Below, piece after piece: positions 1 through 52,375 of a stretch of DNA of 64,000 bases; within the stretch, counting starts at the first letter, position 1, and the number at the start of each line of letters is the position of its first letter. This DNA is from a virus (taxonomy: Duplodnaviria > Heunggongvirae > Uroviricota > Caudoviricetes). Made by a program: the position numbers and the translations under genes. The stretch lies in IMG/VR virus record IMGVR_UViG_3300036790_000261, positions 24,725-88,724 of that record; one strand, 5' to 3'. The notes under the pieces were generated by a model. It was given only the letters and a program-made list of their open reading frames with translations. It did not search any database and was not told the origin of the DNA.

Positions 1-45
1 AAGATGATCTTCCCGCTGCCGGTGATGGAGGTGGTCAGCCGGTGA
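1..45 (+). CDS. 3' end of an upstream gene (partial)
   Basis: Frame is open from the window edge and ends ...KMIFPLPVMEVVSR then TGA 43-45. The stop overlaps the GTG start of the next gene (GTGA coupling). Confidence 0.3.
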   Translation, partial: KMIFPLPVMEVVSR

Positions 46-635
46 TCTCCGTGCTCTGCCCGTCCCGGGGTAACCCCGAGTGGCTGAAACGGTCGGCGAA
101 ATCCCTGCGCAGCACAGCCCGGGGTGAGTTCGAGCTACTGGTTGCCGCTGACGACGATGACCCTGTGACGATTGAGACGGCCGCGGAGGCGGCTGATACT
201 ACGGTCGTCTTGCCGCGGGCGGGTTACGCCAGGCTGCACGTTTACTACCAGGCGCTCGCTGATATCGCGGCCGGCGACTGGCTACTGGTCTGGAACGACG
301 ACTGCATTATGCTCACGCCCGGGTGGGACGTGATTATCAGGGCACTGCCGCCGGAAGTCCTCGTCGCTGACGTCCAGTCCCCGCACTCGCCGCTGTGCTG
401 CCTGCCTGCTGTCCGCCGCAGCGCAGTTGAGGCCATCGGCACGTTCAGCTCGGACAACCCGCACATCGATACTTTCTGGCAGGACGTCGCGAACTCCCTC
501 GGGGTGATGCGGGCCGTCCCTGTCCGCGCCAGCGTGGAATCACCGGTTAGCGCCAATTCCCACGGGTTCTACGAGGCGGGGCACCAGGAGCAGATGGCAG
601 CGTACGCGCAAGTTCTCCGGGAGGCACTAGCGTGA
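42..635 (+). CDS. glycosyltransferase, GT-A/GT2-like
   Basis: The N-terminus ISVLCPSRGN resembles the GT2 (V/I)S(V/I)xxPxxN start. There are acidic DDDD and NDDC (DxD-like) motifs. The gene is translationally coupled to the next GT2. Confidence 0.5.
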   Translation: MISVLCPSRGNPEWLKRSAKSLRSTARGEFELLVAADDDDPVTIETAAEAADTTVVLPRAGYARLHVYYQALADIAAGDWLLVWNDDCIMLTPGWDVIIRALPPEVLVADVQSPHSPLCCLPAVRRSAVEAIGTFSSDNPHIDTFWQDVANSLGVMRAVPVRASVESPVSANSHGFYEAGHQEQMAAYAQVLREALA

Positions 636-1261
636 AGCCCCTCGTCAGCGTCATCACCCCGACCTGGCAGCGGCACGAGCGGCTGCTGAACCGCTGCGTC
701 CCGTCGGTCCAGGCTCAGGCGTACCCGCGGGTCGAGCACGTTATCGCCTGCGACGGCCAGGACCCGGAGCTGGCGCAGCGTATTGACAAGCTTGCGCAAC
801 GGGTTGGGGCCTTCTGCCACCCGGTGACGTTCGTTCACCTGCCTGAGCACGCCCCGGAGCAGCACTGGGGGCACCTGGCGAGGCTAGCCGGGATCGAGGC
901 GGCGAAGGGAGAGTACATCGCCTATGTCGACGACGACGACGCCCTGCGCTCCGATCACGTTGCCAAGCTTGCCGCCTGCCTTGACGCTGACCCGGAGGCT
1001 GGCTGGGCGTACTCCGTGATGGAAAGCCACAACAGCTCCGGGGCTACGCAGATCGGCTTCACCCCGCCGTCCTGCGGCCAGATCGGCACCCCGATGATCA
1101 TGCACCGCCGCGAGACACTACAGCACGGCACCTGGGGGCCCGCCTCTTCCGTTGAGGACTGGGAACTGGTGCAGCGCTGGATGAACGCCGGGGTCAAGCA
1201 CGTGCACTACACCGGGGTCACCGTAGACGTCTGGCCTTCCGCCTTCCACGAGCATTCATGA
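632..1261 (+). CDS. family 2 glycosyltransferase
   Basis: It has the SVITPTWQR N-terminal GT2 signature and a YVDDDD DxD motif. The GTG start overlaps the upstream TGA. Confidence 0.7.
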   Translation: MKPLVSVITPTWQRHERLLNRCVPSVQAQAYPRVEHVIACDGQDPELAQRIDKLAQRVGAFCHPVTFVHLPEHAPEQHWGHLARLAGIEAAKGEYIAYVDDDDALRSDHVAKLAACLDADPEAGWAYSVMESHNSSGATQIGFTPPSCGQIGTPMIMHRRETLQHGTWGPASSVEDWELVQRWMNAGVKHVHYTGVTVDVWPSAFHEHS

Positions 1262-1282
1262 GCCGCATGGTAGCGTGACGCC

Positions 1283-1462
1283 ATGAGTACACCTGAGCCT
1301 CTTGACGAGCGCCCGGCCGGGGCGGTAGAGATCCGCGGCGGTGACAAGCCCGAGGACTTCATCCCCGGTCCAGGCTTCCGCACCGGCAGCGTTGAAGAGC
1401 TGCTCGGTAAGCATGTTCCTTACGCTTCGTGTGACTGCGGCTGCGAGGACGGGTCTGAGTGA
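1283..1462 (+). CDS. hypothetical small protein (59 aa)
   Basis: ATG start, high third-position GC, and a stop that overlaps the GTG of the next gene (GTGA). It was not in the ORF track because it is under 60 aa. Confidence 0.35.
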   Translation: MSTPEPLDERPAGAVEIRGGDKPEDFIPGPGFRTGSVEELLGKHVPYASCDCGCEDGSE

Positions 1463-2034
1463 CCCTCGACGTCTTCACGGCCGCCCAGCAGACGATCCGG
1501 CACGTGCAGAAGGAAGAGCACCGCTGGTTCAAGCAGGGCGACCCGACGTCTCCGACGCTGCCCTGGATGCCGTTCCAGCCCGCCGAGTTCCTCTCGATCC
1601 TCTTTGAGTGCGTCCCTGAGCTCGCGGGCCGGGAGTTCCTGGACGTCGGGTGCGGCCCCGGCACCAAGATGCGCCTGGCCCGCGACTTCTTCGGTATGGA
1701 AACTGACGGTATTGAGATTAACCGCGAGATGGCCGTTGCCGCCGCCCCGCATGCCTCATGCCCGGTAACCACGGGCGATGCGCTGTCTGTCGGCCCCGGT
1801 TTCTACAGCGGCTATGACCTGATCTGGCTTTACCGGCCGTTCCGTGACCCGCAGCTGGAGACCCGGCTTGAGGCCCGGGTCATGGACGAGATGAAGCCCG
1901 GCGCGATCCTGGCCGGCGCGCACTGGGAGATCTGCCCGGCGGACCACCGGTGGATTCCAGTTTTTGACGACTGGGAGATCCGCCGCGGCGCCTGGATGAA
2001 GCCCCGCCCTGTTGACGACGTGCCGCTGCCGTGA
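1459..2034 (+). CDS. class I SAM-dependent methyltransferase
   Basis: Motif I FLDVGCGPG plus the downstream acidic loop (GMETDGIE). Confidence 0.75.
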   Translation: MTLDVFTAAQQTIRHVQKEEHRWFKQGDPTSPTLPWMPFQPAEFLSILFECVPELAGREFLDVGCGPGTKMRLARDFFGMETDGIEINREMAVAAAPHASCPVTTGDALSVGPGFYSGYDLIWLYRPFRDPQLETRLEARVMDEMKPGAILAGAHWEICPADHRWIPVFDDWEIRRGAWMKPRPVDDVPLP

Positions 2035-2300
2035 CCGCGCTCTGGGACCTGCTGCCCCCCGCGATCGTGACGCGGGCTAAGGCGATCGTCGCCGTCATCG
2101 GCGTCACCGGGTTCATCGTCGTCAGCTTCTTCCCGTCGCTCGCCACTGATCACTACGTGGCTGCCGCGATCGCCGTGCTCACCGCCCTCGGCGTCTGGGG
2201 CGTGCCTAACCAGAATGCTAAGACCGAGCGCCCTGTGGGGTTGCGTCACGCAGACGGCACCCCGTACGTGTACAAGGAGAAGCGGCGGCACGAGCGGTGA
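2031..2300 (+). CDS. small membrane protein
   Basis: Two predicted hydrophobic helices. The GTG start overlaps the stop of the methyltransferase gene. Confidence 0.5.
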   Translation: MTALWDLLPPAIVTRAKAIVAVIGVTGFIVVSFFPSLATDHYVAAAIAVLTALGVWGVPNQNAKTERPVGLRHADGTPYVYKEKRRHER

Positions 2301-2524
2301 CTGCCGCGCAAGCGTGGCCGTGGGCGCTGTCGGCAGTGACGCTGCTTAGTGTCTGGGTCATCGGGCTAAAGCGGCACGAGGGCTGGCTGATTGGCCTGGC
2401 CGCGGAAGTCTTGTGGGCAGTGTGGTCCGTGCTGTACCACGAATGGGGCTTCCTGGTGTCCGCCGGGGCGTTCAGTGTTATCTACGCCCGAAACTGGTGG
2501 CTGTGGCGGTCAACGGCAAGCTGA
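2297..2524 (+). CDS. small membrane protein
   Basis: Hydrophobic and Trp-rich. GTGA coupling. This is the last gene of the glyco-operon. Confidence 0.5.
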   Translation: MTAAQAWPWALSAVTLLSVWVIGLKRHEGWLIGLAAEVLWAVWSVLYHEWGFLVSAGAFSVIYARNWWLWRSTAS

Positions 2525-2539
2525 CTGCCACGTGGCAGT
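2524..2539. promoter_or_regulatory. conserved palindrome ACTGCCACGTGGCAGT, copy 1
   Basis: A perfect 16-bp palindrome that starts on the last base of the upstream stop codon. It is one of six copies in the window. Confidence 0.5.
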
Positions 2540-2610
2540 TGAACTAGGATTGAACCGATACCCGAGGCCGTAGTCTGCGGAGCCGGGGCGTACCTGACGA
2601 AGGATGCCCT

Positions 2611-2928
2611 GTGACCTCTATCCCGCTGTTTAACCGGCCCGACGAGTGGTTCTGCCCCAACTGCGATGTCACCGATGTCACCGCGCCGCTGCCGCCCGGC
2701 CAGTCCCGCTACCACCCCTGCCCCGGCCTGCACGGGCTCAACGCCCCGCTGATCCGCCAGGGCGTGAACGTCAAGGTAGAAGCGCACGAGCGCGAGGACT
2801 ACCTGAACGGCGACCTTCAGCAGACAGGCGACAACGGCCGTGTCTACATGAACGTTGAGGTCACCCGCGAGGACGGCACGGACGTTACTGTCTTCGCCGG
2901 GCTCGCCCGCGCAGAGATGAAGGTGTGA
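2611..2928 (+). CDS. hypothetical protein (CPNC...HPCPG, possible zinc ribbon)
   Basis: ORF with a Shine-Dalgarno-like upstream sequence and high GC3. Confidence 0.5.
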   Translation: MTSIPLFNRPDEWFCPNCDVTDVTAPLPPGQSRYHPCPGLHGLNAPLIRQGVNVKVEAHEREDYLNGDLQQTGDNGRVYMNVEVTREDGTDVTVFAGLARAEMKV

Positions 2929-2931
2929 GCC

Positions 2932-3453
2932 GTGACCTGGACTACCTCAGCGATCTTCCAGCAGGCGGCGCTCAATCCACTGCTCGGTAAGGCCACCGGG
3001 TCTACGAACCCCACGACTTTCGGCAGCTGGACGGCTGACACCATCAACGTCGCGCTGTTTCTAACGGGCGCTACCCCGGACAAGACCGCCGCCGTCGGTA
3101 GCACGGGTTACAACACGGGTGTCTGGACGACAGGTAACGAGGCCCCGGGCACGGGTGGCTACACGCAGGGCGGAACCGCACTCGCCTCTAAGGCGAACAC
3201 TATTGACTCGGGTTCGTCTTCGCTGTGCTTCACCGCGGCTAACCCCTCCTGGACTAGTGCCACCATCTCTAGCGTGTTTGGCGACTTGGTCTACGACATC
3301 ACGATTGCTTCAGCGGGTAGCACTGTCGCCAAGCAGGGGTTCTGCTTCAACTACTTCGGCGGCTCGCAGGGCGTTACGGCGGGGACGTTCACGATTCAGT
3401 GGGCTACCCCGCCCAGCGGTGCCGTTACCGCGGTTTTCAACTTCGCTGTCTGA
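2932..3453 (+). CDS. hypothetical Ser/Thr/Gly-rich protein, probably virion-associated
   Basis: GTG start coupled to the upstream gene. The composition resembles structural or fibre proteins. Confidence 0.4.
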   Translation: MTWTTSAIFQQAALNPLLGKATGSTNPTTFGSWTADTINVALFLTGATPDKTAAVGSTGYNTGVWTTGNEAPGTGGYTQGGTALASKANTIDSGSSSLCFTAANPSWTSATISSVFGDLVYDITIASAGSTVAKQGFCFNYFGGSQGVTAGTFTIQWATPPSGAVTAVFNFAV

Positions 3454-3485
3454 CCCTTCCGGCTACCGCCTGAGGGGAGGCCGCC

Positions 3486-4991
3486 GTGGCCACGCTTACC
3501 CGCGTTCAGCACAACAGCATGACGACGACCAGCACCACGGCCACAAACTTCAACACAACCCTTGGTGCCGGGGACACGGTCGGCAACCTGCTGGTAGTCA
3601 CCATTGTGCTGGGCACCAACGGGCTTACGCTGACAGCCCCCTCTGGCTGGGTTCAGGCGGGTTCCTCGGAGGTCGTTTCCGGGTCTCTCGATACCCGGAT
3701 CTATTACCTGGTGGTCAGCTCGGGCAGCGTCACTAGCTTCAACTGGAGCTTCGGCGCTACCGCGCACTCATTCGGCTGGACCATCGACGAGTGGAACAGC
3801 TCTTCCGGATGGCAGGCTAGCCCGGTAGACAGCACCGCCGGGGCCGTTCACACGTCACCGTCGACTGCGGTCAACTGCGGTACCCCGTCGGCGACGACCC
3901 AGGCGTCTGAGCTGTGGCTCGGCGTGCTGTCCTGGGCGAACAGCGGGCAGACGCTGTCGGGTGTGACCGGCGGCTGGTCGACCGGCGATACCGCTACGTT
4001 TACCGGCCAGAACACGCAGACGGCGTTCTTCCAGATCGCCACGACGACCGGCACCCCGAGCCTCGCCGCCACCATCAGCGCGTCCACGGTCAACGCGGGC
4101 GTTGTCGCCACCTTCATGCCCGTCGCCGGCACCACCGTTAACGCGGGGCTCGCCACGGCCACCGGGCTTGCGCTTCAGGTTCCGTCTAACGCCCGGCTCG
4201 CCACCGCTACAGGTACTGCCCTCCAGGTCCCGGCGCCTGCTGGCCTGGCTACGGCTGCCGGCGCTGCGTTCAAGCCGCTGTTCACCGTCCCGGCCCAGCT
4301 GGCGACCGCGACCGGCACCGCGCTGCAGGTTCCGTCTAAGGCGGGGCTCGCCCACGGCACCGGCAGTGCCTTCCAGGTTCCGGCCCCGGCTGGCCTTGCG
4401 CACGGCGCGGGCAGCGCGTTCACCCTCACCCCGTGGAAGGACACGGTCTTCGCGGGGCTGGCCGCGGGCTTCGCCGAGACGTTCCAGCCGACCCCGCGCA
4501 TCCTGCGCACCCCGCTGAACCTGGGGGCGGTGCTGACCGAGGTCACGGCAGACGGCTTCCTGCGTGTAGCCACCGCTGATGCTACGTTTACCCTCGCGGA
4601 CTACGGGGCTACCCTGGCACTAGCTAACTTCGGCGCAAGCCTGACGGGATGGACGATGCAGACGGCCCCGCTGACTCTTAACGAGTTCAACGACGTCACC
4701 ATCAGTATCACCGTGACGCAGAACGGCAGCCCGCTCAACCTGACCGGCGACACGCTTAACCTGCTGCTGAAGACGGCGCCGAACACCCCGGACTCCAGCG
4801 CGCTGATCTTTTCCTCGGCTGGCGGGTCCCCCGCGATCGTCATCACCAACGCAGCTGGCGGCCTCGCTACCGCGATCATCCCGAACACCGACCTCGACGC
4901 CGAGACCTACACGTTCTACCGGCTCGACGTGGTCAGCGGCGGCCTGACCAACACCACGCTGTACGGCAGCGTCGTCTGGATCTCGCTATGA
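3486..4991 (+). CDS. structural protein with tandem AGLATATGTALQVP-type repeats (fibre or decoration-like)
   Basis: 501 aa, Ser/Thr/Ala/Gly-rich, with five or more imperfect 14-20 aa tandem repeats at about 4140-4440. It sits directly upstream of the head-tail connector gene. Confidence 0.5.
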   Translation: MATLTRVQHNSMTTTSTTATNFNTTLGAGDTVGNLLVVTIVLGTNGLTLTAPSGWVQAGSSEVVSGSLDTRIYYLVVSSGSVTSFNWSFGATAHSFGWTIDEWNSSSGWQASPVDSTAGAVHTSPSTAVNCGTPSATTQASELWLGVLSWANSGQTLSGVTGGWSTGDTATFTGQNTQTAFFQIATTTGTPSLAATISASTVNAGVVATFMPVAGTTVNAGLATATGLALQVPSNARLATATGTALQVPAPAGLATAAGAAFKPLFTVPAQLATATGTALQVPSKAGLAHGTGSAFQVPAPAGLAHGAGSAFTLTPWKDTVFAGLAAGFAETFQPTPRILRTPLNLGAVLTEVTADGFLRVATADATFTLADYGATLALANFGASLTGWTMQTAPLTLNEFNDVTISITVTQNGSPLNLTGDTLNLLLKTAPNTPDSSALIFSSAGGSPAIVITNAAGGLATAIIPNTDLDAETYTFYRLDVVSGGLTNTTLYGSVVWISL

Positions 4992-6022
4992 GCGCCACCG
5001 TCTATTACGACAACCCCGCTGAAGCCGCGGCCGTCGTCCCGGTGACCTTCACGTCACTGGCGGGCGCTGTTACCGACCCGGCCTCGATCAGCTGCGTCAT
5101 CACTGACCCCACTGGCACGGCAGCGACGTACACCTACCTGGGCAGCGGGCCGAACAACACGATCACCCGCTCGTCTGCAGGCAACTACGCGCTGAGCATC
5201 ACCGGCCTGGTCCTCGCCGGGCTCTATGTCGGCACCTGGGTGGGCACGGGCAACAACGTCCAGCAGGTCACCCCGACGACCTTCCGGATCGTGCCGCTGT
5301 CGGCCGTCGGGACCGGCATGAACCTGTGGTACACCGGCCGCGAGGAGCTCAAGTCCCGGCTGAACATCACCGACAGCAACTCGGACTACGAGATCCAGAT
5401 CGCCATTCAGGCCGTTACCAACTGGATTAACAATTACTGCGGGCGGCACTTCTACCAGCTGGCCGAGACACGTACCTACGTGCCGACGAACATCTGGGAA
5501 CTGCCGGTCGACGACCTGGTGTCCACCCCCGCGGTCGCCGCCGCCACCCAGGTCAACCTCGACTACGACGGCGACGGCATCTACGAGGTCGCCTGGGGCA
5601 ACCCGGCCCCGCCCATCGGCAACGGGCTCAACTACGTGCTGAAGCTCGGCACCCCCGGCGGTTACGAGGACAACTACAACGTCAACAGTGCAGGCGTGCC
5701 CCGGCCGTACACCCAGCTGCAGGCCCTCATGTCCGGGCAGGGGCAGAACCCGGCAGGCGGCGGCTGGCTCCCGTTCATCTGGCCCTACACCCACCTCAAC
5801 CGGGTGCAGGTCGTCGGGACCTGGGGCTGGCCCGTCATCCCGCCAAGCGTCCAGCAGGCGTCCATGCTGCTGTGCACCGACGTGTTCAAATCCAAGGACG
5901 CACCCTGGGGTATTGCTGGTACGGCCGAGACCGGGCTGATGCGGGTGACCTCATCACCCTGGGTGGTGGAGCTTTTGCACGATTTTGTAAATACTCGCAG
6001 GAAGGTGGGAGTTTTATACTAA
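4988..6022 (+). CDS. head-tail connector/adaptor (gp6-like) with an N-terminal Ig-like extension
   Basis: Residues about 115-200, EELKSRLNITDSNSDYEIQIAIQAVTNWINNYCGRHF, match the gp6-like connector pattern (LK.xL.I.D...D..I..I.AA..I..Y.GR.F). The N-terminal 110 aa form a beta-rich extra domain. Confidence 0.5.
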   Translation: MSATVYYDNPAEAAAVVPVTFTSLAGAVTDPASISCVITDPTGTAATYTYLGSGPNNTITRSSAGNYALSITGLVLAGLYVGTWVGTGNNVQQVTPTTFRIVPLSAVGTGMNLWYTGREELKSRLNITDSNSDYEIQIAIQAVTNWINNYCGRHFYQLAETRTYVPTNIWELPVDDLVSTPAVAAATQVNLDYDGDGIYEVAWGNPAPPIGNGLNYVLKLGTPGGYEDNYNVNSAGVPRPYTQLQALMSGQGQNPAGGGWLPFIWPYTHLNRVQVVGTWGWPVIPPSVQQASMLLCTDVFKSKDAPWGIAGTAETGLMRVTSSPWVVELLHDFVNTRRKVGVLY

Positions 6023-6043
6023 GGCTTTGCGTATGCTGTCTTC

Positions 6044-6553
6044 ATGCGCGAGGTCCAGTTGCACGGGAAGGTAGCCGCCGGACGTGTCGCCCGGGTCGAC
6101 GCCGCTGACTACGAAGAGCTGATGCAGTACCGCTGGCTCGGCTGGGAAAAGCCAGCGAGCGAGTATCGAAGGTCTAACGGGCCCTACGCGTGCCGCCAGT
6201 ACCGGGTGGACGGCAAGAGCGTGCTGCTGTTCATGCACACGTTTCTCACAGGCTGGAGGCGGACAGACCACATTGATCACGACGGGCTGAACAACCAGCG
6301 GTACAACCTGCGCGAGACCACTACGGCTCACAACGAGCACAATTCCCGGGCACGGATCAACACGTACTCCAGGTATAAGGGTGTCACCTGGTCGAAAGCC
6401 TCGCGGAAGTGGCAAGCTGGCATCAGAGTAGACGGACACTTGTACTACCTCGGTCAGTTCACTGACGAGAAGGAAGCCGCTCAGGTGTACGACACAGCTG
6501 CTATGCGTGAGTTTGGGCCACACGCCGTTTTCAACTTCCCGGAGGGCAAGTGA
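6044..6553 (+). CDS. HNH endonuclease with a C-terminal AP2 DNA-binding domain
   Basis: The HNH core is HIDHDGLNNQRYNLRETTTAHNEHN. The AP2 domain is YKGVTWSKASRKWQAGIRVDGHLYYLGQFTDEKEAAQVYD. Confidence 0.75.
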   Translation: MREVQLHGKVAAGRVARVDAADYEELMQYRWLGWEKPASEYRRSNGPYACRQYRVDGKSVLLFMHTFLTGWRRTDHIDHDGLNNQRYNLRETTTAHNEHNSRARINTYSRYKGVTWSKASRKWQAGIRVDGHLYYLGQFTDEKEAAQVYDTAAMREFGPHAVFNFPEGK

Positions 6554-6661
6554 AGCTACGTGTGCTTGTGCGGCTGGAGGACTGGTGGTGTCACCGGCTG
6601 GAGCTCCCGGGTCACCGTCGGTTCTGTGACAAGTTTGACGCCTGGGTCCTAAGCTAAACAC

Positions 6662-6934
6662 ATGGGATACGACGGAAAGTACGGCAAGGTCACTACTGAG
6701 CACGGTGACATCCCCGACGACGAGCCGGTCATCGTCTTCCGTGCTCAGGACCGGCTGTCCGTCAGCGTGCTCCGGGCCTACTTCGAGCTGTGCAGGGTGG
6801 CGGGCAGCCCGCAGCGGCACCTCGCGCTTGTCTCGGGTGCGATCCGGCGGTTTGCCGACTGGCAGGAAGCGCACTCAGGGCAGACGAAGGTCCCGGACAG
6901 CGAGCGCAGCAGGGCGTGGATGCCGGAGGTCTGA
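6662..6934 (+). CDS. hypothetical protein
   Basis: High GC3 and an ATG start. Confidence 0.45.
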   Translation: MGYDGKYGKVTTEHGDIPDDEPVIVFRAQDRLSVSVLRAYFELCRVAGSPQRHLALVSGAIRRFADWQEAHSGQTKVPDSERSRAWMPEV

Positions 6935-7122
6935 TGGGCAGGTTGCACGGCCGGGCCTGCATTCTGTACTTGACGGACGATGACGGCAGGGTGCTTGAAG
7001 TTCCCGTCGGAGACTGGACAATCGATTACGCGGGGTACCCCTCGGTGCCGGTCATGCGGTTTCGAGTCGTAGGGCCATCGGACGGGATCTTTCATGGCGC
7101 CCAAGGCGAAGGTGAAGGCTAA
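6934..7122 (+). CDS. hypothetical small protein
   Basis: The ATG overlaps the upstream TGA. GC3 is moderate. It overlaps the 5' end of the next ORF. Confidence 0.3.
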   Translation: MGRLHGRACILYLTDDDGRVLEVPVGDWTIDYAGYPSVPVMRFRVVGPSDGIFHGAQGEGEG

Positions 7123-8185
7123 AGGGGTCGTTACCCCGAAGAACAACGCCGCCCCGACGGGCCTGCACCTGTCAGCCGCGCAGCGCAAGGCGTACAACGC
7201 GACATTCACTGCCTCCGCCACGGCTGGCTTCCAGAAGCTGGCCCTTGCCCAGCGGCGGCAGGCGATCGCGAACGCGGCCCAGGTGCTGCGCAACTCCCGG
7301 CTGCAGGCAGCCGCCACCGTCCAGCAGAAGGCCAGCGCCGCGCACCAGGCGGCCCGCACCGCCGCGATCGCCAGGTTCGCCGCTCAGCAGACCTACCGGC
7401 AGGGCCGGCTAGCCCACCAGAACGCTGCCCTCCAGGCCCGGCTGTTCGCCGACTACGAGCGGCACATCCAGGTTGCCGCCCGGCTGCAGTTCGCTTACAA
7501 GGGCGAGAAGGCGTACGCGCACGAGGCTGTCATGCGGACCCTTACCACTGCTGCGGCTACCAGCATCGAGGAAGCGCTGTTCGCCCGTGCCGCCAAGACC
7601 GCGAAGAAGGCGGTCAGCACCGTCGGGAACCCGCAGTCCAGCTCGCCCGCCGCGGTCAACGCCCGGCTCGGCGCCGCGCAGGTCATCGCCAGCGCCAAGG
7701 CCGCCGCGCTCGCCGCCGCCCGTGCCACTCCGGCCGGCCGCACCGCCCCCCGCCCTGGGCCCGTCAAGCTGCGGGCTCCCGGCATGTACAAGTGGCGAGG
7801 TGACCCGGACGGGTATGACTGCGTTGCCGCGGCGATCATGAACAGTTGCCAGCAGGCCACGGGCTACCGGTTTTCCGATGTCAAGTACATGGTCCTGGCG
7901 GCCGAGCTCGGGCAGTGGCCGGAGGGGCCGCCTATCGAGGACGCGCTGAAGTACGTGAAGAACAATTGGGAGATCCTAGGCGCTCCCCGCCTGGTGAGCT
8001 ACGAGCCGGTTCCGGTGCACGCCCGTGACCACTGCGTTACTGGTTTCGCCACGGAGAACGGGTCGCATGCCGCCCTCATGTCCGGTCCCCGGTACGTCAT
8101 CAGCTGGGGCCAGCTGCTTCTTCTTGACGACGTGATCCTTCCGGGAACTGAGGTTGAAGAAGCCTGGGCCCTGCTGTGGAAGTAG
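7094..8185 (+). CDS. hypothetical protein: N-terminal Ala/Gln-rich coiled-coil region plus a C-terminal putative papain-like Cys peptidase domain
   Basis: The C-terminal 130 aa contain a DCVAAA...GSHAALM Cys/His arrangement. The N-terminus resembles a scaffold. Confidence 0.4.
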   Translation: MAPKAKVKAKGVVTPKNNAAPTGLHLSAAQRKAYNATFTASATAGFQKLALAQRRQAIANAAQVLRNSRLQAAATVQQKASAAHQAARTAAIARFAAQQTYRQGRLAHQNAALQARLFADYERHIQVAARLQFAYKGEKAYAHEAVMRTLTTAAATSIEEALFARAAKTAKKAVSTVGNPQSSSPAAVNARLGAAQVIASAKAAALAAARATPAGRTAPRPGPVKLRAPGMYKWRGDPDGYDCVAAAIMNSCQQATGYRFSDVKYMVLAAELGQWPEGPPIEDALKYVKNNWEILGAPRLVSYEPVPVHARDHCVTGFATENGSHAALMSGPRYVISWGQLLLLDDVILPGTEVEEAWALLWK

Positions 8186-8194
8186 GCTAGCCGC

Positions 8195-8653
8195 GTGTCG
8201 AACATCACCGTCGTGCGCGAGGCCCTGGCCACCCAGATAGGGCAGCTCGCGTTCCCGGCGCTGCGGTCCCTGCCGGAGATGGAAGGGCAGGTCAACCCGC
8301 CGGTCGGGATCGTCATGCTGGGCGCTGCGAACTACGGCACCACCTTGCAGGGCGCGACCGGGTTCCTCGGCGGCGGCGTGACGATCGCCCCGACGGACAT
8401 CGCCCTTGACTACCTGATCCTGGTAGCCCAGGCGTCGACGGTTGAGCGGTTCGAGGCTGCGCTAGCCGCCTGGCTCGGCTTCGAGAATGACGCGACCGCG
8501 GTGTCCGTGCCGGCTGCCGTTGCCGCAGACTCCTCGCTGGGCGGTACTGTCGCCTGGTGCGTCGCGAACTCAGCGGACCGGCCCGGCCCTGTTGAGTGGA
8601 ACGGCGTGCACTATTTCGGTACCCGCATTCACTTCAGCGTGTCCCTCCAGTAG
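8195..8653 (+). CDS. putative neck or tail-terminator-like structural protein
   Basis: 152 aa, located in the neck region between the connector and the major tail gene. No diagnostic motif was found. Confidence 0.3.
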   Translation: MSNITVVREALATQIGQLAFPALRSLPEMEGQVNPPVGIVMLGAANYGTTLQGATGFLGGGVTIAPTDIALDYLILVAQASTVERFEAALAAWLGFENDATAVSVPAAVAADSSLGGTVAWCVANSADRPGPVEWNGVHYFGTRIHFSVSLQ

Positions 8654-8707
8654 AAGGAAGTTACGGCCGGCCGAGAGCGCTTCGGTCAACTAGGAGGTGG
8701 TGCCGGG

Positions 8708-23498: not shown

Positions 23499-26400
23499 GT
23501 GACCTCGACCCCCCCGAAGCCAAGCCTGCTCAAGTCCACCGCGCTCGCCCAGGCCACGGCGGTGGCCAACCGGCTGAACTCCCTGCTGCCCACGGTGCCG
23601 AGTGCCGAGTCGCCGGTCACCGTGTACCAGGCGGGCACCATCGGGGTGGGCGGGCAGCTGAGCGCGCCTACCTCGGTGTTCCCGGTCGGCACCGGCTATT
23701 ACGGGGTGTGGACGGCGCCGGACCTGAACGACGGCAAGCCGTACACGATGCAGGTGGAGTGCTTCGGCGGCGGCGGCGGCGGCGGGGGCGGGTCCTCCAC
23801 TTCGGGCGGCGGCGGCGGGGGCGGGGCTGAGTACGCCCGGGAGACCTCGTACCCGGTCAAGCCCGGCGTCAACTACGTCTACGTGGTGGGAGTACCCGGC
23901 TCGGCGGGCACGGCGAACAACGACGACAACCAGGGCGCGACCGCGGGCGGCACCGGGGGGCTGACCGTATTTGACATCGCCGGAAGCGGCGTCGCGGGCG
24001 GCGTGCAGGCCAACGGGGGCCAGGGCGGGGATGTCGGCAATACCGGCATCGGCGGGAACGGGGGCCTGGGCAGCTTCAACACCACTGAGTTCCAAGGTGG
24101 CCCGGGTGGTACCAACCTTCCAGGCGGCGGGGGCGGTTCCGGCGGCCAGGGCGGTACCGACAATCCCATCGCACTGCTGAACGCAGGGCTGCTGAGCTCG
24201 CCGCCGGTCGCCTGGTACCTGATGAACGACGCGTCGTCCAACGGGCAGCTGAACGACAACAGCGGCGACGACAACCCGGCTAACCCGGGCAGCTACGGCG
24301 GCGGCGGCCTCGCCTACGGGCAGCCGGGAGCCCCGTCCCAGGTCCCCGCGTACGTCAGCCCCGGCAACCCGCCGAGCTCCCCCAACCCGACGACCGCCGG
24401 AACCCAGCTGCGGTTCGTCCTCGCCCAGCTGAACCAGCAGTCCGGTTACGCGCTGTGCCCCGGCTTCGCCTTCTCCGGGCACCAGGTCACCGTCTCGGGC
24501 TGGGTGACCCCGGACCCGACGGGCACCTGGGGCAACACCGCGACCGGCTCGCGGGCGGTCATCGCCACTAACTGCACGGGGTACGCGAACTCCAGCACCG
24601 CGGGCGTCGCCCTGTACTTCAAGAACTCCGGCACCAGCGCTCACCCGAGCTGGACGCTGAACTTCTACTGCGCTAGCTCAGGCTCGCACCAGACGGTCAG
24701 CGTCAGCGTCCCGCCGGTCGCGAACACCCCGGTCTACGTGGCGGCCACCTTCAGCTCCGGCGCGATGACCGTGTACGTCAACGGCACCTCGGCGGGCACG
24801 GCCACCGCGGGCTTCAGCAGCCTGCCCGGCTTCCCGACGGTGCCGTTCGGCGTGACGCTGGGCGCGGACCCGCGGATCACCACCGACTGGTTCTTCGGCT
24901 ACATGTCCAACCTGTGGTTCTCGCCCGGCGTGCTGAGCTCAGCGGGCGTGACCCAGGCGTTCAGCGGCTCCGGCGGCAGCTCAACCGAGGGCGGGGCCGG
25001 CGGCGGCGCGTCGGGCGGGCCGGCGGCACTCGGCGGCGCCGGGGCGGCAGGCAGCGGGTCGACGGGCGGGGCCGGGGGGACACCCGCTACCCAGCCTGCG
25101 ACAGACGTCGGCCTGAACACCCCGGCCTCAGCGGGCATCGCGGGCGCGGCGGGTAACGCCGGCAACCCGGGTATCACCGGCGCGGCGGGCGCGGGCGGCG
25201 GCGGGGCAGGCAGCTCGACGTCACCCCCGAATATCGTCACCGTCCAGGTGCCGTTCGTCACGGCGGCCTCTTACTGCGGGACGGACGCGACCGGCGGCAG
25301 CGCGGGCACGGTGTACAACCCGGTCATCCAGGGCGCCACCGGGCGGCTGTTCACCGGCGGCCAGTCGCAGGACGCGGCATCGGGCTCCAAGAACTCTCTG
25401 CTGGTCCTGCCGCCCAGCCTGGCGGCCAGCCTGCAGCCGGGCAGCTTCACCGTGCTCCGGGTGACCCTGACGGTAACCAGCGCTAACCCGCAGGCGGCGC
25501 AGAACGCGCTGATGCAGGTCGGCTGGGCGGCCGACACGTTCCTGCCGATCACCTACGACGCGAGTGACACCGCGGGCTCGGCGGGCGTGGTGGAGATCCC
25601 GGCCGGGGCGTTCACCGTCACCGCGGACCTGACCGAGTCTCAGCTGGGCGCGTTCCTGCAAAACGGCGGCGCTAAGGCGCTGGTTCTCGGCCCTGGCCCC
25701 AGCCCGACCTTCGCCGCTTACAACTCCGACACCGCGGCTGACTTCTACACGGCTGTCTACGGGCCGGGCGCGGTAGACAGCGCGGGCAACAGCCTGGCCC
25801 CGTTCCTTACGGTCACCTACGCGCAGTCGACGACCGTGCAGCAGGGGTCGCCCGGCGGCGCGGGCGCGGTGCTGCTGACCTTCCTCAACCAGGCGCAGAC
25901 ACTGGTCGGCAACTGGACCGCCGCGGACGGCATCAACGCCTCCGGCGGCCAGCTCACTGAGACGACGGTCGTACTCGGCTCGACCTTGCAGGACGCTGCC
26001 CGGATGAACGCGATCCGCGAGCAGGTCAGGGCTGAGGTCAAGGCGGAGAACCGCGCGATGATCAGGGAGGCGATGGCCCGGCTCGGCTCGGTTCCGGGGG
26101 CGCCGGGCACCCTGCTCGGCTACACGGCGGGCATGACCACGGTTACCCAGACGACGCCGGGTACCTACACGTTCACCGTGCCTTCTGACGTCACCTCGCT
26201 GAGCGTCGCCTGCTGGGGCGCGGGCGCGGGCGCTACCGGGGGCAGCACCAGCCAGGGGCAGGGCGGCGGCGGCGGCGGCGCGTACGCGGGCGAGCCGAAC
26301 TACAACGCCGCCCCGGGTGACGTGCTCACTTACATTGTCGGGGCGGGCGGCGCCGGGGACCACGTCGGGTCGAATAATTCGCCGGACGGCGGGTTCAGCG

Positions 26401-27464
26401 CGTTCGACACCCTTAACATCGACGGTCCCGGGGTCCTGGCTAACGGCGGCCAGCATTACAGCAGCAGCCGCAACTTCGGGCCCGGCGGCACGACCTCGGG
26501 CAACACCGTCAGCTTCGCCGGCGGCAACGGCGGCCCGCTGAACTCCGGGCAGAACAACGGCTCCGGCGGCGGCGGCTCGGCGGGCGCGGGCGGTAACGGC
26601 GGCGGCGGCAACTCGGGTGTCACCGGCGGCCACGCGGGCTCGGGCGGCGGCGCGGCGGGCGGCGCGGGGTCTACTAACGGCAGCGGCTCAGGCGGCAGTG
26701 CGCCGGGTGCGGGCGGCGGCGGCGCCAGCCAGGGCACCAGTGCGTTCACCGGCGGCTCGGGCGCTAACGGCAAGGTCGTCATTACCTACGTCTCGTCCAC
26801 CGCGCTGGCGACCTCGATCGCGACGGCCTCAGGCAGTGACGCGGCGGGCAACCCGTACCCGACCGGCATCGGCACGACTGAGCTCGCGGTGAGCGGCACC
26901 ACCACGACGGCGAACCAGATGGTCAGCAACACCACCACGACCAACGTGCTCGCCGTCACCACCAACGCCACCGTCGGCGGCAACCACACCGTCACCGGCA
27001 ACGTCGCGGTCGGCGGCGTCATCACCGGCCCGTCGGGCGGCACCCTGGAGTCCAGCAGCGGCGTGCACGTAGCCGGCGCCACCCTGATAGACGGCGGCCT
27101 GACCGTCAGCAGCACCGGGGCGAGCATCAGCGGCGGCACCGACACCGACTCGCTGACGGTCAGCGGCGGCTCGACAACTGAGCTCGCCGCCGGCCTGCAC
27201 GCGGGCGGTGCCATCCTGGCTGACGGCGGGCTGACCAGCACGACCATCGTCACCGCCAACGGCTCCGGTACCAGCGAGTACACCGGCGGCATTCACGCGG
27301 GCGGTGCCGTCCAGGCCGACGGGGGCTTCATCGGGCCGGCCATCCCGGGGTTCCCGGTTTCCATGGGCGTGACCATCGGCACTGTGTCCGGCTCCGGCTC
27401 CAACGTGATTGCTACCGGCGGGCTCGTCAACCTGCTCAACGCCATCAACTCGGCACTGACTTAG
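23499..27464 (+). CDS. minor tail protein, glycine-rich with a LamG/concanavalin-like domain (1321 aa)
   Basis: Two Gly-rich domains (VECFGGGGGGGG..., VACWGAGAGATGG...). A LamG-like block at about 24420-24950 (VSGWVTPD...LYFKNSG...VYVNGTSAG). Confidence 0.7.
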   Translation: MTSTPPKPSLLKSTALAQATAVANRLNSLLPTVPSAESPVTVYQAGTIGVGGQLSAPTSVFPVGTGYYGVWTAPDLNDGKPYTMQVECFGGGGGGGGGSSTSGGGGGGGAEYARETSYPVKPGVNYVYVVGVPGSAGTANNDDNQGATAGGTGGLTVFDIAGSGVAGGVQANGGQGGDVGNTGIGGNGGLGSFNTTEFQGGPGGTNLPGGGGGSGGQGGTDNPIALLNAGLLSSPPVAWYLMNDASSNGQLNDNSGDDNPANPGSYGGGGLAYGQPGAPSQVPAYVSPGNPPSSPNPTTAGTQLRFVLAQLNQQSGYALCPGFAFSGHQVTVSGWVTPDPTGTWGNTATGSRAVIATNCTGYANSSTAGVALYFKNSGTSAHPSWTLNFYCASSGSHQTVSVSVPPVANTPVYVAATFSSGAMTVYVNGTSAGTATAGFSSLPGFPTVPFGVTLGADPRITTDWFFGYMSNLWFSPGVLSSAGVTQAFSGSGGSSTEGGAGGGASGGPAALGGAGAAGSGSTGGAGGTPATQPATDVGLNTPASAGIAGAAGNAGNPGITGAAGAGGGGAGSSTSPPNIVTVQVPFVTAASYCGTDATGGSAGTVYNPVIQGATGRLFTGGQSQDAASGSKNSLLVLPPSLAASLQPGSFTVLRVTLTVTSANPQAAQNALMQVGWAADTFLPITYDASDTAGSAGVVEIPAGAFTVTADLTESQLGAFLQNGGAKALVLGPGPSPTFAAYNSDTAADFYTAVYGPGAVDSAGNSLAPFLTVTYAQSTTVQQGSPGGAGAVLLTFLNQAQTLVGNWTAADGINASGGQLTETTVVLGSTLQDAARMNAIREQVRAEVKAENRAMIREAMARLGSVPGAPGTLLGYTAGMTTVTQTTPGTYTFTVPSDVTSLSVACWGAGAGATGGSTSQGQGGGGGGAYAGEPNYNAAPGDVLTYIVGAGGAGDHVGSNNSPDGGFSAFDTLNIDGPGVLANGGQHYSSSRNFGPGGTTSGNTVSFAGGNGGPLNSGQNNGSGGGGSAGAGGNGGGGNSGVTGGHAGSGGGAAGGAGSTNGSGSGGSAPGAGGGGASQGTSAFTGGSGANGKVVITYVSSTALATSIATASGSDAAGNPYPTGIGTTELAVSGTTTTANQMVSNTTTTNVLAVTTNATVGGNHTVTGNVAVGGVITGPSGGTLESSSGVHVAGATLIDGGLTVSSTGASISGGTDTDSLTVSGGSTTELAAGLHAGGAILADGGLTSTTIVTANGSGTSEYTGGIHAGGAVQADGGFIGPAIPGFPVSMGVTIGTVSGSGSNVIATGGLVNLLNAINSALT

Positions 27465-30776: not shown

Positions 30777-30792
30777 ACTGCCACGTGGCAGT
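30777..30792. promoter_or_regulatory. conserved palindrome ACTGCCACGTGGCAGT, copy 3
   Basis: Perfect 16-mer at the convergent junction of forward and reverse genes. Confidence 0.5.
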
Positions 30793-37780: not shown

Positions 37781-39106
37781 GTGAACGACGAAGACTACGA
37801 CTGGATGGCTGGCCCTGCCACCGTCCCCCTTGAGCCTGTCCGCTCAGCCCCGCCGTGGGAGCTAGCGACGCTCACCGATACCCCCGTCGTGCCGGGCTGG
37901 CACACCGACACCATGACGATGGCCGCCCCGGGCGACCTGAAGGAGAACGACGATGATACTGCTGCCCGTCGGAGTGACGATCGCGGTCTACTCCGTGCTC
38001 GTGCTCGGGCTCGCCGCTCGCAGGTTCGCCCGGTGGACGCGCCGGATGTGGGCACCCGTACCCTGACGGTTATCGTCCCGGCGTATAACGAGGCGGCCGG
38101 GCTGCCGGAGACGCTGACCTCGGTGATGCGCCAGACCGAGGCGGCTGACCGGGTCCTGGTGGTTGACGACGGCAGCAGTGACGGCACCGCCGAGGTCGCC
38201 CTGGCCTACGGGGCTGAGGTACTGCGCCGGGACCAGTCGTCGGGCAGCAAGTCAGCAGCACTCAACTACGGGCTGCTGGAGTGCGACACCGACCTGGTGC
38301 TGAACGTGGACGGCGACACGGTTATCGCCGACAACTACGTCAAGCTGGTTAAAGCGGCATTCGCCGACCCGATGGTCGCCGTCGCCGCCGGGTCAGTCGG
38401 GGTGTGGAACCCCAAGGGCATCCTGCAGCGCGGGCGCCAGGCGGAGTACCTGCTTAGCTTCCACCTGTTCCGGCCGGTTCAGAACGCCTGGGGATCGCCC
38501 TTGGTGTGCTCGGGCGCGGCATGCGCCTACGACCGTGAGCCATTGGCTGCCGCGGGCGGGTTCCCGGATGACACCGTCGGGGAGGACATGGACTACACCT
38601 GGCGGATGATGCTCGCCGGGCGCAAGGCGGTGTACGTCGCCGGGGCTGAGTGCTACGCCATCGACCCGAAGACGACCGCGCAGCTGCGCACCCAGTTGTG
38701 GCGGTGGATGTCCGGCTACTTCCAGTGCCTGCGACTGCACTGGCGGGAGATCCTCCGGCACAAGAAGCTGCTGGGCTTGCTGGCGGTGCTGTCCGTCATG
38801 GACCTGCTCAGCCTCCCGCTGTGGCTAGCGACCCCGTTCGCGGTAACCGGCAGCGGGCGGGAGATCGCCGAGACGGCACTGCTCTCGCTGGTCGGCACCG
38901 ACCTGCTGATCTCACTGCCTGTCGTCCTAGTCGGCGCGGCCCGGCGCAAGATCAGCATCTGGTGGACGCTAGCGAGCTTCCCGTGCATCTGGGTGCTGCG
39001 GGCGTTCAACGCCTACTACTTCACCAAGGCAATGATCTGGGAGCTGGCCCTCGTCCCGTGCGAGTGGAAGACCAGCCTGTCCGTCTTCAAGAAAGGCCAC
39101 GCGTAA
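37781..39106 (+). CDS. processive family-2 glycosyltransferase (NodC/chitin/hyaluronan-synthase-like) with C-terminal TM helices
   Basis: LTVIVPAYNE, DGD, and the QLWRW (QxxRW) motif, followed by three or more hydrophobic helices. Confidence 0.7.
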   Translation: MNDEDYDWMAGPATVPLEPVRSAPPWELATLTDTPVVPGWHTDTMTMAAPGDLKENDDDTAARRSDDRGLLRARARARRSQVRPVDAPDVGTRTLTVIVPAYNEAAGLPETLTSVMRQTEAADRVLVVDDGSSDGTAEVALAYGAEVLRRDQSSGSKSAALNYGLLECDTDLVLNVDGDTVIADNYVKLVKAAFADPMVAVAAGSVGVWNPKGILQRGRQAEYLLSFHLFRPVQNAWGSPLVCSGAACAYDREPLAAAGGFPDDTVGEDMDYTWRMMLAGRKAVYVAGAECYAIDPKTTAQLRTQLWRWMSGYFQCLRLHWREILRHKKLLGLLAVLSVMDLLSLPLWLATPFAVTGSGREIAETALLSLVGTDLLISLPVVLVGAARRKISIWWTLASFPCIWVLRAFNAYYFTKAMIWELALVPCEWKTSLSVFKKGHA

Positions 39107-39108
39107 AC

Positions 39109-51735: not shown

Positions 51736-51830
51736 CCTGGAACCCGGACCCCGGTTACGTGCTGATCTTGTCCGTTGTGTTCGCCGCGGCTGCCGCGACT
51801 GTCGCCCTGATGGTGCTGGGCGTTATCTGA
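51732..51830 (+). CDS. tiny membrane peptide (32 aa)
   Basis: ATGA overlap with the upstream gene. Hydrophobic. Confidence 0.3.
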   Translation: MTWNPDPGYVLILSVVFAAAAATVALMVLGVI

Positions 51831-51901
51831 GCCCCGTCCGCGAATTGAACGCGGGACCTCTTTCTTACCAAGAAAGCGCTCTTCCACTGAGCTAACGGGG
51901 C
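51830..51901 (-). tRNA. tRNA-Thr (anticodon GGT)
   Basis: Manual fold: acceptor GCCCCGT/ACGGGGC, D stem GCTC/GAGC, anticodon stem CTTTC/GAAAG with loop TTGGTAA, T arm CCGCG-TTCAATT-CGCGG. Confidence 0.7.
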
Positions 51902-52248: not shown

Positions 52249-52302
52249 GTTTTCCTCCTGAAAAGTTGGTGGGCCCCCGCCAATTCCCATGACGGGGGCC
52301 CG

Positions 52303-52375
52303 ATGTCACCGGGGGACTTGAACCCCCAACTTCAGTCTCCAGAGGACTGCGCGCTTCCGATTGCGCCAGGTGTCG
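52303..52375 (-). tRNA. tRNA-like, Gln (CTG) anticodon arm, imperfect acceptor stem (possible pseudo-tRNA)
   Basis: D stem GCGC/GCGC, anticodon stem CAGTC/GACTG with loop CTCTGGA, T arm GGGGG-TTCAAGT-CCCCC. The acceptor has two mismatches. Confidence 0.3.

Follow-up and report, generated by a model that had tools for sequence, protein, structure and literature searches.

We analyzed a 64,000-nucleotide stretch of tailed-phage DNA (IMG/VR record IMGVR_UViG_3300036790_000261, positions 24,725 to 88,724; hereafter the window), which opens with a chain of genes for glycosyltransferases, methyltransferases and small membrane proteins. Our best reading of this glycan gene island, held with moderate confidence, is that it glycosylates the virion proteins of the phage. 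It would represent a virion-glycosylation enzyme set that is not orthologous to the known one and that combines branched-sugar tailoring, a variable gene cassette and a UUA-linked recoded transferase. Virion glycan decoration was also the original prediction for this DNA. The soluble transferases, the linkage to structural genes and the precedent of the mycobacteriophages uphold it, whereas the accompanying claims of O-methylation, of the size of the operon and of a third transferase in a single open reading frame (ORF) needed correction.

Virion glycans influence how antibodies recognize phage particles, and probably also how the particles adsorb and how stable they are. To our knowledge, such glycans have so far been documented experimentally for only a few mycobacteriophages. 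The locus described here defines a large and abundant group of uncultivated soil actinophages of ~115-122 kb.

A glycan gene island within the virion structural region

The window is the reverse of positions 33,608-97,607 of DASXDZ010000073.1 (122,349 nt; metagenome-assembled genome [MAG] GCA_036490375.1, labelled Trebonia sp.) and has a G+C content of 66%. It is part of a ~120 kb phage genome from soil metagenomes, binned with a Trebonia (Streptosporangiales) MAG. A megablast search of window positions 1-12000 against 50,697 phage records gave zero matches, and tblastn against phage records returned only remote matches for the GT2b protein described below and none for p501 or GT-B. Relatives of GT2b were present in 20 IMG/VR loci at 40-65% identity, and further relatives were drawn from JGI, Logan, ENA and NCBI. 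The relatives lay repeatedly on contigs of 114-122 kb, which are probably complete phage genomes of that size.

The gene chain had been described as a seven-gene operon, a number that proved to be an artifact because the edge of the window cuts the operon. A 10,453-nt Logan contig (L001), found via the 197-aa protein of the chain, is 100% identical to window positions 1-1584 and adds 8,869 nt upstream, where four more genes are joined by GTGA: those for a GT4 glycosyltransferase, a 122-aa protein, an Rmd-like short-chain dehydrogenase/reductase (SDR) and a 3-C-methyltransferase. The chain, which stands at the head-proximal end of the neck-tail module, is ten genes with eight GTGA overlaps, in the order GT4, 122-aa protein, 4-ketoreductase, 3-C-methyltransferase, GT2a, GT2b, 59-aa protein, S-adenosylmethionine (SAM)-dependent methyltransferase and two small membrane proteins. 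Within the window it comprises the 3′ end of the 396-aa 3-C-methyltransferase gene (bases 1-45, overlapping the next gene by GTGA) and the plus-strand ORFs 42-635, 632-1261, 1283-1462, 1459-2034, 2031-2300 and 2297-2524, all with coding-type G+C at third codon positions (0.79-0.88). All of these genes had been thought to be joined by GTGA or ATGA start-stop overlaps. We found GTGA overlaps at 42, 632, 1459, 2031 and 2297, but no ATGA junction in the chain, and the 59-aa gene begins 21 nt past the stop of 632-1261, without an overlap there; its own stop overlaps the methyltransferase start.

GT2b (632..1261, + strand, 209 aa), a core gene of the island, is a GT2 glycosyltransferase of the GT-A type. 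It matched PF00535 at 1.6e-16 (61.1 bits against a gathering cut-off of 23.3), carries a DDDD motif (YVDDDDAL), matched phrog_14775 and has PglI and SpsA as its closest solved relatives in the PDB. GT2a (42..635, + strand, 197 aa, with a GTGA overlap at both ends) is a probable GT-A glycosyltransferase that matched phrog_14945 at 7.6e-10 and found no match among PDB sequences, and the GT4 glycosyltransferase encoded on L001 matched PF00534 (5e-10) and phrog_7162 (5e-38). These three transferases and the CgeB-like GT-B transferase encoded farther downstream have zero membrane segments, and we found in the chain neither a flippase, a polyprenol-phosphate transferase nor a GT-C.

The sugar 3-C-methyltransferase is of the TcaB9/TylC3 type (396 aa; 3′ end at 1..45, + strand, with the remainder upstream at L001 7724-8914). 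In a PDB sequence search its residues 4-391 aligned to residues 15-413 of TcaB9 at 7e-40; it matched TcaB9, TylC3 and KijD1 over its full length, has an N-terminal CxxC...CxxC and has PF08421/PF08484 on record. The top PDB match of the 298-aa SDR was the GDP-6-deoxy-D-lyxo-4-hexulose reductase Rmd (3e-46), followed by GDP-6-deoxy-D-mannose reductase (7e-33); its NCBIfam equivalog scores were all far below the cut-offs. TcaB9, TylC3 and KijD1, together with 4-ketoreductases, belong to branched deoxysugar pathways of actinomycete natural products. The phage enzyme resembles them in its full-length similarity, including the N-terminal Cys4 zinc motif and the C-terminal Methyltransf_14 domain, and in the adjacent Rmd-like SDR, and differs from them in being phage-encoded beside structural genes. 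We consider 3-C-methylation of a 4-keto-6-deoxyhexose to be well supported by this homology. We identified no 4,6-dehydratase gene in the island; the host would therefore have to supply the precursor.

The second methyltransferase (1459..2034, + strand, 191 aa, 66-85% identical in relatives) is a probable class-I SAM-dependent enzyme with the motif LDVGCGPG. Its PDB matches, to protein and O-methyltransferases, were weak (E = 3e-3), and against characterized sugar O-methyltransferase families only sub-threshold, generic class-I matches were obtained. The O-methylated sugars that had been proposed for this phage thus give way to a 3-C-methylated 6-deoxyhexose, to which the homology points, while the matches of the 191-aa protein are weak and unspecific. 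The predicted 59-aa mini-gene (1283..1462, + strand) matched no Pfam or PHROG family, yet it is a real gene, as its N-terminus (MSTPEPLDE..VE.RGGD) is conserved in six lineages. The two small membrane proteins were likewise borne out by hydrophobic segments: the first (2031..2300, + strand, 89 aa, segment at residues 7-40) is a DUF7439 protein (PF24220, 1e-7) with a weak match to a holin PHROG (1.4e-3), and the second (2297..2524, + strand, 75 aa) matched phrog_2421 at 2.1e-15.

The Ser/Thr-rich, virion-type proteins expected directly downstream, at 2932..4991, are indeed encoded there. The Ser+Thr content is 27% in 2932-3453 (p173) and 25.5% in 3486-4991 (p501), compared to ~10% in the enzymes. 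Farther upstream of the chain, L001 encodes small membrane proteins and the Ser/Thr-rich proteins u137, u208 and u677 (137, 208 and 677 aa; 24-32% Ser+Thr), the last with ~20-aa repeats; across the five flanking proteins the content is 24-32%, versus ~10% elsewhere. BLASTP revealed no paralogy of p173 with u137 or u208 or of p501 with u677, and one relative fuses the p501 N-domain to u677-type repeats. The first gene after the chain encodes p105 (2611..2928, + strand), a conserved 105-aa protein with a CxxC motif that always stands beside p173 and often right after GT2b (synteny in L011, L012 and L017-L022). p173 (2932..3453, + strand), a highly conserved, Ser/Thr/Gly-rich beta protein and candidate glycan acceptor, is the partner of the fiber-like protein downstream of it. 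It has 836 homologues, and the best 120 of the 836 are all at least 58% identical and all unnamed. Weak homologues are found in the satellite phage MiniFlayer, between capsid and adaptor, and in the Gordonia phage Keelan, at the end of the minor tail genes, beside large fiber/minor-tail genes. The AlphaFold model of p173 was poor (pLDDT 51.5), and its profile matched nothing meaningful among PDB sequences.

p501 (3486..4991, + strand), the second candidate acceptor, is predicted from its AlphaFold2 model and Foldseek matches to be a fiber-like virion protein. The model comprises an N-terminal beta domain (residues 1-217, pLDDT ~85-92), a predicted disordered linker of 170 residues with Ser/Thr/Ala/Gly/Pro repeats (218-388) and a confident beta-sandwich of the BppU-N/Ig-like kind at the C-terminus (389-501). 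In the PDB the C-domain matched the 80alpha baseplate (5.8e-4) and the TP901-1 ORF48/BppU N-domain, with values from 5.8e-4 to 2.3e-3, and in BFVD whole p501 matched 92 predicted viral proteins at E ≤ 1e-3, among them minor tail proteins (1e-9 to 1e-5) and a CenC-like carbohydrate-binding protein. A disordered, Ser/Thr-rich linker is the kind of segment that gets O-glycosylated, and p501 is put forward here as a candidate acceptor only. The genes that follow encode the head-to-tail adaptor (4988..6022, + strand; phrog_442, 1.3e-17, and tblastn matches to annotated adaptors), the tail terminator (8195..8653, + strand; phrog_17840, 2.8e-8) and the major tail (tube) protein (10270..10722, + strand; phrog_10528, 9e-8). 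3′ of the tube gene are chaperone-like ORFs and then a 1,626-aa tape measure gene.

This placement of glycan-building genes within the virion structural region upholds part of the original prediction, and the arrangement is conserved. The closest relatives share the order GT4, small protein, tailoring genes, GT2b, mini-gene, methyltransferase, small membrane protein(s), p105, p173, p501-type protein, adaptor, the 363-aa protein p363, tail terminator, GT-B and tube. Among more distant relatives, GT2b adjoins p105-p173 and GT-B immediately precedes the tube gene; the latter position was seen in all relatives examined (L019, L021, L022, L026, L032, L038, L041, L101 and L102). More than 20 related phages show the island linked to the tail tube gene and to Ser/Thr-rich, fiber-like proteins, and the linkage of the core to p105/p173 and to the tube gene is kept in phages that are only 40-65% identical. 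The tailoring genes, in contrast, vary among relatives, which have other SDR types, a short-chain ketoreductase, cupins or extra methyltransferases. The C-methyltransferase and GT2a are present or absent depending on the relative, and the SDR and C-methyltransferase of the window phage share only 27-29% identity with their counterparts in relatives that are close in other respects. Judged by these comparisons, the island is a conserved transferase core combined with an exchangeable sugar-tailoring cassette, which resembles O-antigen-style diversification applied to the virion.

Candidate targets of the glycans

In the reading that we favor, the reductase and the C-methyltransferase would convert a host-made NDP-4-keto-6-deoxyhexose into a 3-C-methyl-6-deoxyhexose donor, from which the soluble transferases would build short O-linked glycans on Ser/Thr-rich virion proteins in the cytoplasm, before assembly. 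The acceptors would be the fiber-like modules whose genes flank the island on either side, with the tail tube as a possible further acceptor, and the 191-aa methyltransferase would add another methyl group to some acceptor. With relatives keeping GT4, GT2b, the small protein, the methyltransferase, p105 and p173 while swapping tailoring genes, the glycan would differ from phage to phage. The absence of membrane segments from the transferases fits a cytoplasmic modification of proteins that are assembled in the cytoplasm. The substrates and the identity of the sugar are proposed here from the gene content.

According to annotation papers that cite Freeman et al. 2023 (PMC11600133, PMC12363180 and PMC13313380), transferases of the phages Che8, Corndog and Myrna glycosylate capsid and tail tube subunits. 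In the Corndog genome, the methyltransferase gp35 and the transferases gp36-38 are encoded between portal and protease; in Che8, gp108 fuses a transferase to a methyltransferase. As in Che8 and Corndog, the island has tandem, coupled, soluble transferases and a SAM-dependent methyltransferase; as in Corndog, its glycan genes lie within the structural operon, flanked here by fiber-like, adaptor, terminator and tube genes; and GT2b shares phrog_14775 with the N-domain of Che8 gp108. BLASTP of the window proteins against Che8 gp108-110 and Corndog gp35-38 aligned only the DXD region of GT2b with Che8 gp108 (8e-4), and the 191-aa methyltransferase gave no credible alignment with the Che8/Corndog methyltransferase (26-28% identity, with one large gap). 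The essential Che8 gp110/Corndog gp38 (phrog_854) has no counterpart here, and gp109/gp37 (phrog_1721) is likewise unmatched; Che8 gp109/gp110 and Corndog gp36-38 were all assigned to PHROGs other than those of the island transferases. Conversely, the 3-C-methyltransferase, the 4-ketoreductase, GT4 and the CgeB-like GT-B set the island apart from Che8 and Corndog. By these comparisons the system would function like the mycobacteriophage one in outline and is no member of it by descent.

A second parallel is offered by the giant viruses of the Megavirinae, which according to PMC10117803 use their own rare-sugar pathways to glycosylate capsid fibrils, with clade-specific sugar sets. From that account, the likeness is that a virus makes unusual nucleotide sugars and the transferases for its virion fibrils; the difference is that these are eukaryotic giant viruses with unrelated proteins.

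Several observations weigh against virion glycosylation by the island. Both the modification and its likely acceptors, fiber-like proteins, are predicted here from genes, in contrast to the demonstrated capsid and tube C-termini of Che8 and Corndog, and the island transferases (phrog_14945, 14775 and 7162) are not orthologues of those of Che8 and Corndog. A major capsid gene, which would encode an acceptor of the Che8 type, could be located neither within the window nor on the 8.9 kb that L001 adds upstream. A structural role for p173 is weakly suggested by distant homology and context. Two enzyme assignments are soft: the PF00535 score of GT2a is 18.6 bits, under the 23.3 cut-off, which leaves one of the two predicted GT2 genes firm and the other probable, and the 191-aa protein scores 21.9 bits with Pfam Methyltransf_25, again below the cut-off, so that a SAM-dependent methyltransferase, as predicted, is supported by its motif and otherwise only probable. 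Finally, a cytoplasmic model does not account for the presence of two membrane proteins in the chain.

The membrane proteins bear on a different target, the host envelope, which the island could modify instead of the virion, either to mask receptors, to exclude superinfecting phages or to make a polysaccharide at infection time. The nearest characterized relatives of GT2b (PglI, SpsA, TuaG and NodC) build envelope glycans, translational coupling ties the two small membrane proteins to the chain, and the phage also has polysaccharide genes at 37781-41472. We nevertheless consider an envelope target unlikely: all four island transferases are free of membrane segments, the chain lacks the export and lipid-carrier functions searched for above, it is embedded in and coupled to late structural genes, and its core stays linked to p105/p173 and the tube gene across phages only 40-65% identical. 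The separate module at 37781-41472 encodes a processive-type GT2 synthase (PF13641, 1e-29) whose C-terminus has two membrane segments, together with a polysaccharide deacetylase (PF01522, 2.7e-25) and a GH16 hydrolase (PF00722, 7.7e-8). It resembles a synthase-deacetylase pair of the poly-N-acetylglucosamine/Nod type and is itself a candidate for action on the host envelope.

We regard as rather less probable still that the transferases act on phage DNA bases, on a non-virion phage or host protein or on a small molecule, with the adjacency of Ser/Thr-rich proteins being coincidental. Phage transferases that glycosylate DNA are well known, the window contains a DNA methyltransferase and DNA metabolism genes, and the best of the weak PDB matches of the 191-aa methyltransferase include protein methyltransferases. 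Against this, the island has no hydroxymethylase or base-modification gene beside it, DNA glycosylation would not typically involve a branched deoxysugar pathway, and the synteny with structural genes is conserved.

A glycosyltransferase gene interrupted by TTTAG

A third glycosyltransferase had been placed at 8708..9825, near the tail gene. A GT-B gene does lie there, in the neck/tail region, but its 1,118 nt are no multiple of three and it is not one ORF; it occupies two frames and needs recoding. The 5′ segment (8708..8737, + strand, frame 0) has a Shine-Dalgarno (SD) sequence AGGAGG and a GTG start and encodes VARILLVHPG, which matches the N-terminus of intact homologues (VARILLVHPGPDFSVADVY). 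Past the codon GGT (8735-8737) homology runs on in the -1 frame, where the main segment (8734..9825, + strand) is free of stops and matches PF13524 (Glyco_trans_1_2, 1.6e-8). Relative to the intact genes of L012, L032, L041 and L042, the gene has exactly five extra bases, TTTAG, inside CCGGG^CCCGG after codon 10. The resulting recoding site, C CCG GGU UUA GCC (8731..8743, + strand), has the insert at 8737-8741 and the UUA codon at 8738-8740. There is no start codon in the -1 frame between 8596, which lacks an SD, and 8812. UUA occurs once in the 15,042 codons counted in window genes.

We note that, across the 44 genes counted, in-frame TTA recurs only in the adaptor gene, as its penultimate sense codon (6011-6022, ..GTT TTA TAC TAA). 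It is shared with L032, and six other relatives end two codons earlier. The window has four tRNA genes, Arg-ACG (18076-18149), Thr-GGT (51829-51901), Gln-CTG (52302-52375) and Met-CAT (56442-56517), none of which reads UUA.

Two other accounts of the frame change were ruled out. An assembly error is excluded by three independent Sequence Read Archive assemblies and the NCBI contig, which are identical at the site, and by the insert being carried by seven other lineages. A start at GTG 8596 is excluded by the missing SD, by its overlap with the terminator gene and by the upstream substitutions, which are non-synonymous in that frame.

The insert TTTAG is present in seven further lineages from other samples (L034, L038-40, L044, L077, L101, L102 and L103), whose GT-B proteins are 55-88% identical to that of the window. 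The -1-frame ORF is intact in the window, L034 and L038, with dN/dS of 0.17-0.26 at dS of 0.47-0.72, compared to 0.21 for the intact pair L032-L041. 5′ of the insert, all codon differences are silent when read in frame 0 and alter the amino acid when read in the -1 frame. In the 27 codons from the insert to ATG 8812 the pattern is reversed: read in the -1 frame they show 4-12 synonymous versus 0-2 non-synonymous changes, and read in frame 0 they show 0 synonymous versus 7-15 non-synonymous changes, with stops. Frame-0 products stop after 16-43 residues, at varying places. Because the insert is kept and both flanks are under purifying selection in their own frames, we read the TTTAG site as conserved recoding and not as the decay of a pseudogene. 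That the gene is a frameshifted pseudogene, or yields an N-truncated protein from ATG 8812 as in the public annotation, is very improbable: the five extra bases, the preference of gene callers for 8812 or a downstream GTG and the missing strong downstream RNA structure would agree with it, but the insert and the strong SD-GTG leader are kept in eight lineages, the dN/dS values are on a par with the intact pair, and the 27-codon stretch before ATG 8812 is selected in the -1 frame although it has no start codon of its own.

Across the GT-B family in the protein database, gene calls lack the N-terminal segment in 28 of the 117 full-length clusters at 90% identity, and these clusters are scattered on a neighbor-joining tree (22 parsimony changes). 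The insert itself was verified in DNA for eight lineages only, and of the 56 matches to a 17-mer search for the site in metagenomes, 55 were chance matches without the gene.

The recoded gene type also has its own 5′ cassette, with a strong SD (GGAGGTG), the spacer TGCCGGG and mostly non-preferred first codons (GCT CGT ATC TTG CTA GTT .. GGT TTA). In intact GT-B genes the SD is weak, and preferred codons that end in G or C predominate (GCG CGC ATC CTG CTG GTG). This suggests from the sequences that the whole 5′ cassette may move by recombination.

For the recoding itself we propose that the ribosome would stall while Gly-tRNA sits on GGU and the A site is occupied by the rare UUA. It could then slip by -1 on C CCG GGU, which would give the product HPG-FS-PDFS, or hop over 5 nt, which would give HPG-PDFS, identical to the intact homologues. 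The slippery sequence C CCG GGU is present in six of the eight lineages. Three observations speak against this scheme in one or other of its forms. L101 and L103 have CAU CCC GGU UUA and lack the GGG for classical -1 re-pairing, which favors a hop or a mechanism independent of re-pairing. At the landing triplet of the hop, AGC, the Gly anticodon taken off from GGU would pair at two of three positions. No significant stimulatory RNA structure was found by energy (z = 0.06 for 8725-8830; also 0.21). A hairpin between the SD/start region and the take-off region is retained in 95.6% of cells and has two compensatory pairs, including GUG:CAC to AUG:CAU; it is only suggestive, because the structure was derived from one of eight closely related sequences.

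The tRNA that reads UUA, bldA, is scarce in vegetative Streptomyces. We tentatively suggest, as a possibility short of an expectation, that TTTAG is a conserved and transferable switch: when the UUA tRNA is scarce, the full-length glycosyltransferase would be made, and when it is available, a useless 16-43-aa peptide, so that decoration is tuned to the state of the host. About a quarter of the GT-B family, corresponding to the clusters with truncated calls, may carry the switch. If it is real, the virion glycan would be tuned to the physiological or developmental state of a filamentous actinomycete host, and the family would surpass every other natural set of UUA-dependent recoding sites in size and, should the mechanism be bypassing, would have the shortest natural coding gap.

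The closest known parallel is the large terminase gene of the actinophage phiHau3 and of two prophages, in which UUA is followed by 7-10-nt coding gaps that are bypassed (Smith et al. 2013; Antonov et al. 2023, PMC10732093); such bypassing concerns 3 of 100 terminase genes and has mass spectrometry support in E. coli (PMC10732093). In both cases an actinophage gene contains a short block that starts at a rare in-frame UUA between conserved flanks, and removal of the block restores an ancestral peptide whose junction is highly conserved in uninterrupted homologues. The present case differs in concerning a glycosyltransferase, in its 5-nt block placed 10 codons from the start, in its occurrence in at least eight diverged lineages, in the alternative of a -1 slip on C CCG GGU that most of these offer and in being documented so far as sequence. 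With GT-B, the very few cases of UUA-associated recoding in actinophages come to include a second gene family, one that has numerous natural variants, and the 5-nt insert of GT-B is a compact case for distinguishing -1 slippage from a short hop and for the sensing of host tRNA state by a phage.

GT-B homologues are named CgeB by JGI, in keeping with the PF13524 match, which is above the cut-off. The spore maturation protein CgeB of B. subtilis acts on a proteinaceous surface layer. Unlike CgeB, the phage protein matches PF13524 only in its C-terminal half and is phage-borne, always beside the tube gene; no relative was found among PDB sequences.

Palindrome and other features of the window

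A terminator-like palindrome had been noted after the chain. The 16-bp perfect palindrome ACTGCCACGTGGCAGT, with a CACGTG core, does occur at 2524..2539, on the stop codon of the last chain gene, as the first of six copies in the window (2524-2539, 18153-18168, 30777-30792, 41955-41970, 50892-50907 and 56556-56571), versus 0.09 expected. Its likeness to a terminator does not extend further: no copy is followed by a T-run, the fold z-score of copy 1 was -1.1, and no canonical terminator was found in 1-3600. Promoter and terminator scans gave nothing informative, and an Rfam scan of positions 1-12000 gave no match. By inspection most copies lie at or near gene-block boundaries, two adjoin tRNA genes (Arg, 18076-18149, and Met, 56442-56517) and the copy at 50892-50907 lies within the ORF 50845-51735. 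Neither L001 nor the related loci contain the palindrome, which may serve as a factor-binding site or as a terminator without U residues.

An HNH endonuclease gene (6044-6553) stands between the adaptor and the neck genes. It is probably a mobile insertion, because the gene tables of L032, L034, L038 and L041 have no gene of that size there. The p363 protein (7094-8185) has an Ala/Lys-rich N-terminal half and a C-terminal domain containing Cys and His; it is 45-51% identical in relatives and has no Pfam or PHROG match. The overlapping ORFs 10828-11328 and 11241-11798, between tube and tape measure genes, lie where the tail assembly chaperone pair, produced through a programmed frameshift, is usually encoded. 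Farther downstream, in a stretch of 72% G+C, 23499-27464 encodes a 1,321-aa tail protein with Laminin_G_3 (concanavalin-like) and Gly_rich_2 domains, which is a likely receptor-binding fiber. A transposase-like gene (58379-59401, minus strand; phrog_4285, 2.2e-25) lies in the minus-strand block at 52-62 kb, and no integrase was identified among the ten window proteins scanned.

The same Trebonia MAG contains a second related, phage-sized contig, L032 (DASXDZ010000203.1, 117,224 nt), in which p173 is 84% identical, GT-B is intact and the island has a cupin gene and a different SDR. Genes of the u137, u208 and u677 types lie downstream of p501 in L032, versus upstream of the island in L001. Lastly, L037 (CAWDSJ010000001.1), a 3.9-Mb contig of an alphaproteobacterial MAG, matched residues 27-127 of the Ser/Thr-rich u137 protein of L001 at 57% identity and may represent a prophage fiber module in a distant host.

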